Shown one piece after another: positions 53,267-53,939 of a DNA stretch of 64,000 nt (the stretch's first letter is position 1; every line of letters starts with the position of its first letter). The notes beneath the pieces were generated by a model. The model made no database searches and had not been told where the DNA came from. It saw nothing but the letters and a program-made list of their open reading frames with translations. Position numbers and translations under genes: made by a program. This stretch comes from Escherichia coli (GTDB lineage Bacteria > Pseudomonadota > Gammaproteobacteria > Enterobacterales > Enterobacteriaceae): the NCBI RefSeq assembly GCF_001677475.2, contig NZ_CP015229.1; one strand, written 5' to 3'.

Positions 53267-53294
53267 GCGTGTGGTCAGGTTACTGACCACACGC
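53267..53294. terminator. Hairpin GCGTGTGGTCAG-GTTA-CTGACCACACGC between convergent slyB and slyA
   Basis: 12-bp perfect stem read from sequence. Confidence 0.55.
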
Positions 53295-53304
53295 CCCCTT
53301 CATT

Positions 53305-53745
53305 TCACCCTTTGGCCTGTAACTCAATGATATTATGCTCAAGTTTTGCGATGAGCGTAATCAGTTGTTCCAGTTCCTCTGCGGAGATGCCATGTAAGAT
53401 TTCCGCGCGGGTTTTGTTAATAACAGCTTCCATTTCGCTGATCAGTGGCTCTGCCTTTTCCGTCAGTTTAATACGTTTAGCCCGACGATCGCTGGCACAA
53501 GTTTGACGCGAAATTAACCCTTTTTCTTCCAGTTGGTCCAGAGTACGGACCAGTGATGGCTGCTCGATGCCAATCGCTTTTGCCAGTTGAATTTGCGACT
53601 GGTCTGGAGGTAACTGATGGATATTGTGTAACGTAACCCAATGGGTTTGTGTTAACTCCAGCGGTTTCAGGCGATGGTCTATCAGAGCACGCCATATGCG
53701 CACCAACCGTGCCAGATCAGAACCTAGTGGCGATTCCAATTTCAT
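53305..53745 (-). CDS. slyA: MarR-family transcriptional regulator SlyA
   Basis: ORF track 146 aa; true start may be the TTG at 53737..53739 (144 aa). Confidence 0.9.
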
Positions 53746-53755
53746 CTCCTTATAA

Positions 53756-53767
53756 TTAGCTTGCTAA
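53756..53767 (-). promoter_or_regulatory. SlyA box TTAGCAAGCTAA (exact consensus on minus strand) immediately upstream of slyA start
   Basis: Read from sequence; established SlyA recognition consensus. Confidence 0.6.
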
Positions 53768-53939
53768 GATATTATGCGGCTTTTAGAATAGTGTGCAGCA
53801 ATTGTATTGCTAAAACAAATGTATTGCTGCATTTGGTTACCGTCAGACATATTTTTCAGAAATTGCGCGTAAATTTTTCGCACTTAAAGAATATTTATTA
53901 ATCTAACGCAATATATTCGGTCGTAAAGGAATCTACTTT

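Follow-up and report, generated by a model that had tools for sequence, protein, structure and literature searches.

The DNA analysed here, referred to as the window throughout, is a 64-kb stretch of the E. coli chromosome that carries the genes anmK–slyB–slyA–ydhIJK, and in it slyA stands with its slyB and ydhIJK neighbours. The slyA coding sequence (144 aa plus stop) occupies 53305..53739 on the minus strand, with the stop codon at 53307..53305. Both a profile match and a structure match identify its product: SlyA scores 278.7 bits against the NCBIfam equivalog NF002926 (cut-off 120), covering residues 1–143 of the 144-position model, and matches the PDB SlyA entry 3q5f with E = 1.9e-79. SlyA is a DNA-binding regulator of the MarR family with a DNA-recognition helix and wing, and in enteric bacteria the SlyA/RovA regulators govern virulence, capsule, fimbriae and the counter-silencing of H-NS. 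The locus is present in 5424 of 5426 complete E. coli genomes in the order anmK, slyB, slyA, ydhI, ydhJ, and the 111 bp around the SlyA box described below are at least 99% identical in 5420 of 5423 genomes of the species. Yersinia aldovae and Hafnia have the same slyA neighbours; the Serratia locus has slyB and a ydhJ-like gene, with no called ydhI. On the other side of the gene, between the convergent slyA and slyB, positions 53267-53294 hold a 12-bp GC-rich hairpin (GCGTGTGGTCAG TAAC CTGACCACACGC) with a T-rich tail, which is probably a shared bidirectional terminator.

Around the start of slyA the minus strand reads, in order, ATC, TTAGCAAGCTAA, TTAT, AAGGAG, ATG, AAA, TTG, GAA, TCG, CCA. 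The 12-mer TTAGCAAGCTAA at 53767..53756 (minus strand) is a high-affinity SlyA operator that has already been described; it matches the SlyA consensus at 12 of 12 positions and also fits the pattern TTAN6TAA. It spans −28..−17 from the TTG start of slyA, +18..+29 of the slyA transcript and −40..−29 of a distal ydhIJK promoter. The original prediction had placed an exact SlyA box on the minus strand 11 bp upstream of the first in-frame ATG, and its coordinates and distances are right: 10 bases separate the box from that ATG, and the last box base is −11 from the A. A search of both strands of the 64-kb window gave a single copy of the exact 12-mer, compared with a naive expectation of about 0.008 and with none in 100 dinucleotide shuffles.

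The AT-rich 200-bp slyA–ydhI intergenic region contains three distinct box-like sites, against 0.49 in shuffles (P about 0.013). The two weaker SlyA-like sites each match at 9 of 12 positions: TTAGCAATACAA, at 53802..53813 on the minus strand, lies upstream of the slyA transcription start site (TSS) and varies between genera, and TTATTAATCTAA, at 53895..53906 on the plus strand, fits TTAN6TAA and is closely followed by the proximal ydhIJK TSS at 53910. A perfect inverted repeat, AGCAAT-ACA-ATTGCT (53797-53811, minus strand), overlaps TTAGCAATACAA shortly before the slyA TSS; E. coli and E. albertii have it, Salmonella and Klebsiella do not.

The footprints behind the SlyA consensus were reportedly made on the Salmonella slyA promoter itself, and the Salmonella box is identical, so that the exact match at slyA is partly circular and does not count as independent evidence. 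The consensus TTAGCAAGCTAA is credited to Stapleton 2002 and TTAN6TAA to Haider 2008; according to Curran 2017, the consensus was derived from footprinting and limited SELEX with Salmonella SlyA. Table 3 of Curran 2017 (PMC5797941) lists TTAGCAAGCTAA for PslyA of E. coli K-12, 22 bp upstream of slyA, a distance that is consistent with the TTG start, and the same paper gives the site at 53895..53906 as TTAGATTAATAA, 161 bp upstream of slyA. Published work shows SlyA binding to this region: in EMSA, E. coli SlyA shifted the 200-bp slyA–ydhI intergenic fragment with an apparent Kd of about 50-100 nM (Curran 2017), and McVicker 2011 also reported that SlyA binds its own promoter.

We compared the locus with those of 80 other Enterobacteriaceae species (81 sequences including the E. 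coli window). The exact box was present in 77 of the 80, the Shine-Dalgarno (SD) sequence was invariant in all 80, and the string AAGGAG-ATGAAA-TTG was invariant in all except two loci, L074 and L042. Across the 81 sequences, majority-base conservation was 0.998 over −27..+2, 0.80 at the third codon positions of the first 50 codons and 0.55 over −200..−91; Will 2019 also described the distal upstream part as hypervariable. The operator is thus conserved at its orthologous position beyond neutral expectation. The Salmonella subspecies in the set have an identical box–SD–ATGAAATTG string, and the operator of the S. Typhimurium slyA promoter is the same 12-mer as that of E. coli in the same position relative to slyA. 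Beyond the family, box-like sites with one or two mismatches occur at the identical −28..−17 position in Serratia (TTAGCATGCTAA), Hafnia (TTAGCACGCTAA) and Yersinia (CTAGCACGCTAA), whereas Photorhabdus, Sodalis and Moellerella have a degenerate site or none. The gene for Yersinia RovA resembles slyA in its TTG start and in its box-like sequence at −28, but differs in its two box mismatches, in the missing upstream ATG and in the rest of the upstream region. From the invariance within Enterobacteriaceae and the unchanged position in the outgroups, we conclude that operator, SD and UUG start form an old and strongly constrained module.

It is vanishingly improbable that the exact 12-mer arose by chance and has no function. 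Such a reading can point to relaxed box matches (three or fewer mismatches), which are not enriched across the window (40 found versus 52.6 expected). Against it stand the shuffles and the published binding to the slyA–ydhI fragment, and it is refuted by the conservation of the box, which 77 of the 80 other species keep although synonymous sites nearby vary.

Immediately downstream of the box lies the SD sequence UAAGGAG (53746..53752, minus strand; AAGGAG at 53751..53746), which can form a 7-bp duplex with the 3′ end of 16S rRNA (−9.3 kcal/mol) and ends at nucleotide 39 of the 5′ untranslated region (UTR). Two in-frame codons follow that might serve as starts: ATG at 53745..53743, with a 0-nt spacer to the SD, and TTG at 53739..53737, with a 6-nt spacer. 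The original prediction had noted the TTG two codons past the ATG as an alternative start of a 144-aa protein, and the open reading frames bear this out, with 146 aa from the ATG and 144 aa from the TTG. The optimum SD-to-start spacer is about 5-9 nt. A functional SD is therefore present at canonical spacing from the UUG, and none is so placed for the AUG. RefSeq and MG1655 both annotate the 435-nt coding sequence that begins at the TTG (144 aa). The suggestion that the box overlaps the ribosome-binding region fails, in contrast, because there is a gap of three to four bases (TTAT) between the box and the SD.

Published work points to the same start. Kawakami 1999 is cited for UUG as the start of Salmonella slyA, and the protein N-terminal sequencing evidence is from Salmonella, not from E. 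coli. For E. coli there is the indirect evidence that replacement of the native UUG with AUG raised SlyA more than 5-fold (McVicker 2011). A NAR 2024 paper places the AUG immediately after the SD and has Salmonella initiating at a conserved UUG two codons downstream, and primers for Y. pestis rovA begin with TTGGAATCG. The arrangement of AAGGAG, ATGAAA and TTG in the window does not differ from that of the UUG start credited to Kawakami 1999 for Salmonella and shown by McVicker 2011 for E. coli. What the present comparison adds is two natural variants that have lost the ATG and seven outgroup genera without it, and this is additional support only.

In the first variant, L074, AGG replaces the upstream ATG and SlyA is intact. 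In the second, L042 from Cedecea sulfonylureivorans (1496-1503), a 1-nt deletion turns AAATTG into AAATG, which puts an ATG exactly at the TTG position of a 144-aa SlyA and leaves the upstream ATG out of frame, at the head of a 6-aa peptide. If the UUG-to-AUG result of McVicker 2011 transfers, SlyA translation in this species should be several-fold higher. Other Cedecea proteins (entries P0112 and P0114) have an extra Ser-Pro after residue 3. Among the outgroups, the start is TTG in Yersinia, Hafnia, Edwardsiella, Photorhabdus, Sodalis and Moellerella and GTG in Serratia, and all seven genera (eight loci) lack the upstream ATG. The corresponding spacers read GGGCAA in Yersinia (GAGCAA at the Y. 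pestis locus), GGGTAA in Serratia, AATAAA in Hafnia, ATTAAA in Edwardsiella, GGACAA in Photorhabdus, AGAGAA in Sodalis and GGAAAA in Moellerella. The start position, as TTG or GTG, is thus conserved across Enterobacterales, also where the alternative AUG is missing. Since the outgroups keep TTG or GTG without a spacer ATG, we conclude that the non-AUG start is ancestral and that the ATG is a lineage-specific spacer.

We consider it very unlikely that the ATG at 53745..53743 is a real or co-used start that yields a 146-aa protein beginning MKLESPLG. The codon is in frame, 78 of 80 Enterobacteriaceae have it, and many database entries for Salmonella, Klebsiella and Enterobacter use the 146-aa form. 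However, its conservation is non-specific, as the whole stretch from −27 to +11 is conserved base for base; it abuts the SD with no spacer; SlyA is intact in both loci in which it is lost or out of frame; and the outgroup genera that lack it retain TTG or GTG. The published evidence favours the UUG, and the TTG product aligns over its full length with the curated 144-position NCBIfam model. slyA translation starts at the UUG at 53739..53737, and the ATG two codons upstream is just spacer.

The start-codon ambiguity noted in the original prediction is real in the sense that protein databases hold both 146-aa and 144-aa versions of SlyA; the literature, the RefSeq and MG1655 annotation and the comparative data settle it as TTG. 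The split between 144-aa and 146-aa annotations was seen in one homologue search, which returned relatives of at least 82% identity. Large clusters annotated with the 146-aa MKLESPLG form are P0014, P0065 and P0072 (1556, 1006 and 62 member sequences) from Salmonella, Klebsiella and Enterobacter, whereas the E. coli entries have the 144-aa form. The 146-aa entries for these three genera are over-extended by two codons. A 9-bp hairpin with three G–U pairs is predicted at 53716-53740 (minus strand; nucleotides 45-69 of the slyA mRNA) and contains the UUG; it is weak and no better than those of shuffles, and if it forms it could further damp initiation.

Transcription starts at the locus were taken from SMRT-Cappable-seq Supplementary Data 2 (PMC6131387), which lists a TSS for slyA (b1642) at 1720869 reverse and TSSs for ydhIJ (b1643/b1644) at 1720881 and 1720995 forward, together with lacZ at 366343 and ompA at 1020186. 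A window coordinate is the MG1655 coordinate minus 1667085, anchored on slyA at 1720390..1720824 in NC_000913.3. The lacZ and ompA positions, which we take to be the canonical values, serve as a control for the table. Converted in this way, the slyA TSS lies at 53784 on the minus strand, giving a 45-nt 5′ UTR, and the two ydhIJK TSSs lie on the plus strand at 53796 (distal) and 53910 (proximal, 1720995 forward).

Combining a promoter scan with the mapped TSS placed a distal ydhIJK promoter at 53761..53796 on the plus strand, with a −35 element TTGCTA at 53761-53766, a 17-bp spacer, a −10 element TAGAAT at 53784-53789 and a TSS at 53796. Its −35 element lies wholly inside the SlyA box, and the predicted and observed TSSs agree to the base. 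The operator therefore overlaps a core promoter element of the divergent operon, as at MarR-type loci, although the scan match alone is not above chance (one promoter-like site on the plus strand versus 1.4 expected). Both hexamers are conserved in Enterobacteriaceae, and this conservation and the coincidence of the TSSs make the distal promoter credible. It may be a minor one, since Will 2019 assigned the −35-proximal SlyA site of Salmonella ydhI to a 75%-match sequence and not to the perfect box.

The slyA TSS at 53784 and the distal ydhIJ TSS at 53796 are 12 bp apart on opposite strands, and two −10-like hexamers overlap there with a 1-bp offset (TAGAAT at 53784-53789 and TATTCT at 53790-53785). 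Overlapping −10 elements on the two strands are a described geometry of bacterial bidirectional promoters, at which polymerases compete and the typical TSS distance is 18 bp. The 53784-53796 segment looks like such a bidirectional promoter.

For slyA itself, a minus-strand promoter scan and inspection found no canonical −10 element at a proper distance from the TSS at 53784. The best candidate, TATTCT at 53790-53785, ends 1 nt before the TSS, an unworkable distance; TACAAT at 53806-53801 is 16 nt too far; CATAAT at 53776-53771 is downstream of the TSS that it would have to serve; and a sigma-54-like TAGCAA-N5-TTGCT was rejected because the GG is missing and the sequence is not kept in Salmonella or Klebsiella. 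The TSS falls at the start of an A4 run; initiation may be reiterative, or the promoter may be of a non-standard kind. The hexamer 4 nt upstream of the box is a perfect TATAAT in most genera and CATAAT in E. coli; a promoter that used it would start inside the operator. The slyA TSS differs between species (Will 2019).

The mapped TSS places the box within the slyA mRNA, at nucleotides 18-29 of the 45-nt UTR, and the box is a near-palindrome. Both facts would suit a role as RNA, in which a 5′ UTR structure or a binding site hides the ribosome-binding site, but we regard this as extremely unlikely. The predicted fold of an 85-nt segment of leader and early coding region has z = +1.07, with 178 of 200 shuffles at least as stable; the SD is unpaired in that fold; and as RNA the palindrome could form a 4-bp stem at most. 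SlyA, for which structures exist in the PDB, is described as a DNA-binding protein equipped with a DNA-recognition helix and a wing. We rejected the RNA-level role because the leader fold is no more stable than shuffles.

Since SlyA is described as DNA-binding, what matters is the position of the box relative to the promoters and not to the ribosome-binding site. This removes the basis for the tight autorepression that the original prediction had drawn from an overlap with the ribosome-binding site: there is no overlap, the ribosome-binding site is an RNA feature, and the effect of SlyA is moderate and of disputed sign. The original prediction is right about a SlyA autoregulatory site and about TTG as a candidate start, while the mechanism and the strength that it supposed are wrong or unsupported.

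Will 2019 found, by in vitro transcription in the Salmonella system, that SlyA lowers transcription of slyA 5.3-fold and that of ydhI about 19-fold, and that salicylate lifts the repression in both cases. For E. coli, Corbett 2007 is cited as reporting positive autoregulation of slyA, and Curran 2017 took a small increase in transcript with a multicopy plasmid as a sign of autoregulation. In the latter study ydhIJK went up 2.2-fold, not down, on SlyA overproduction. The reported regulatory outcome thus differs between species that share the 12-mer, with repression in Salmonella in vitro and positive autoregulation in E. coli.

Taken together, the 12-mer is very probably the known high-affinity SlyA operator of the slyA–ydhIJK region, followed by a strong SD and the true UUG start, with moderate autoregulation at the DNA level. 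A SlyA dimer on the box would act on DNA, where it could block RNA polymerase from the distal ydhIJK promoter in the manner of classical MarR-type repression, and the same dimer may be a downstream block or modulator of slyA transcription. The expected outcome would be autoregulation of moderate strength, with a net sign that is under dispute for E. coli in vivo. Published experiments show that the weak start codon is a further limit: with UUG, SlyA output is about 5-fold lower than with an AUG at that place.

A different weighting of the two promoters would assign the box chiefly to the distal ydhIJK promoter, as an operator that occludes its −35, with a secondary effect on slyA: with polymerase blocked in the ydhI orientation there would be less competition between polymerases, and thus more slyA transcription, which would account for the positive autoregulation reported for E. 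coli. The −35 inside the box, the promoter that matches TSS 53796 to the base and the overlapping −10 hexamers with their 1-bp offset, as in competing bidirectional promoters, are in favour of this, as are the repression of ydhI by about 19-fold in Salmonella in vitro and the positive autoregulation credited to Corbett 2007. Yet ydhIJK rose on SlyA overproduction in E. coli, SlyA represses the Salmonella slyA, whose box is identical, in vitro, the mapped TSSs lie 12 bp from each other rather than the typical 18 bp, and the promoter scan match is at chance level. We hold this weighting to be rather improbable.

The perfect box could also be a shared switch in a back-to-back promoter, where one SlyA dimer would decide the direction of the polymerase. 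This is a tentative idea that we think unlikely; if true, it could reconcile Salmonella autorepression in vitro with E. coli positive autoregulation in vivo. An explicit account of the switch geometry, with the distal ydhIJK −35 and the slyA +18..+29 site, was not found in the accessible literature.

The locus resembles marRAB and slyA–ydhIJK as treated by Will 2019 in its palindromic operator between a regulator gene and a divergent efflux operon. It also resembles MarR-type loci in the overlap of the operator with the −35 of the divergent promoter and, in the Salmonella system, in the relief by salicylate. Unlike classical MarR-type loci, it has its operator downstream of the TSS of its own gene, not over the −35 or −10 of that gene, and SlyA is also an H-NS counter-silencer at many other promoters. 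The amount of SlyA decides whether the cell can counter-silence (Will 2019). Operator and weak UUG start are two knobs that set the SlyA level, and both are already documented.

Because the operator and the TTG start are both in the literature, the finding is real but ordinary. Its practical value is small: it bears out the 144-aa TTG annotation as correct, and it draws attention to the coincidence of the operator with the −35 of the mapped divergent ydhIJK promoter, the only mildly new detail, and a modest one. Further upstream, at 53812-53825 on the minus strand, lies the motif ATACATTTGT(T/G)TTT, which is conserved, amid diverging flanks, not only within Enterobacteriaceae but likewise in Yersinia, Serratia and Hafnia, and which stands about 75-90 nt upstream of the start in the loci L083-L085. 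By its sequence, it could be a PhoP half-site (TGTTTA-like) or the site of another regulator.
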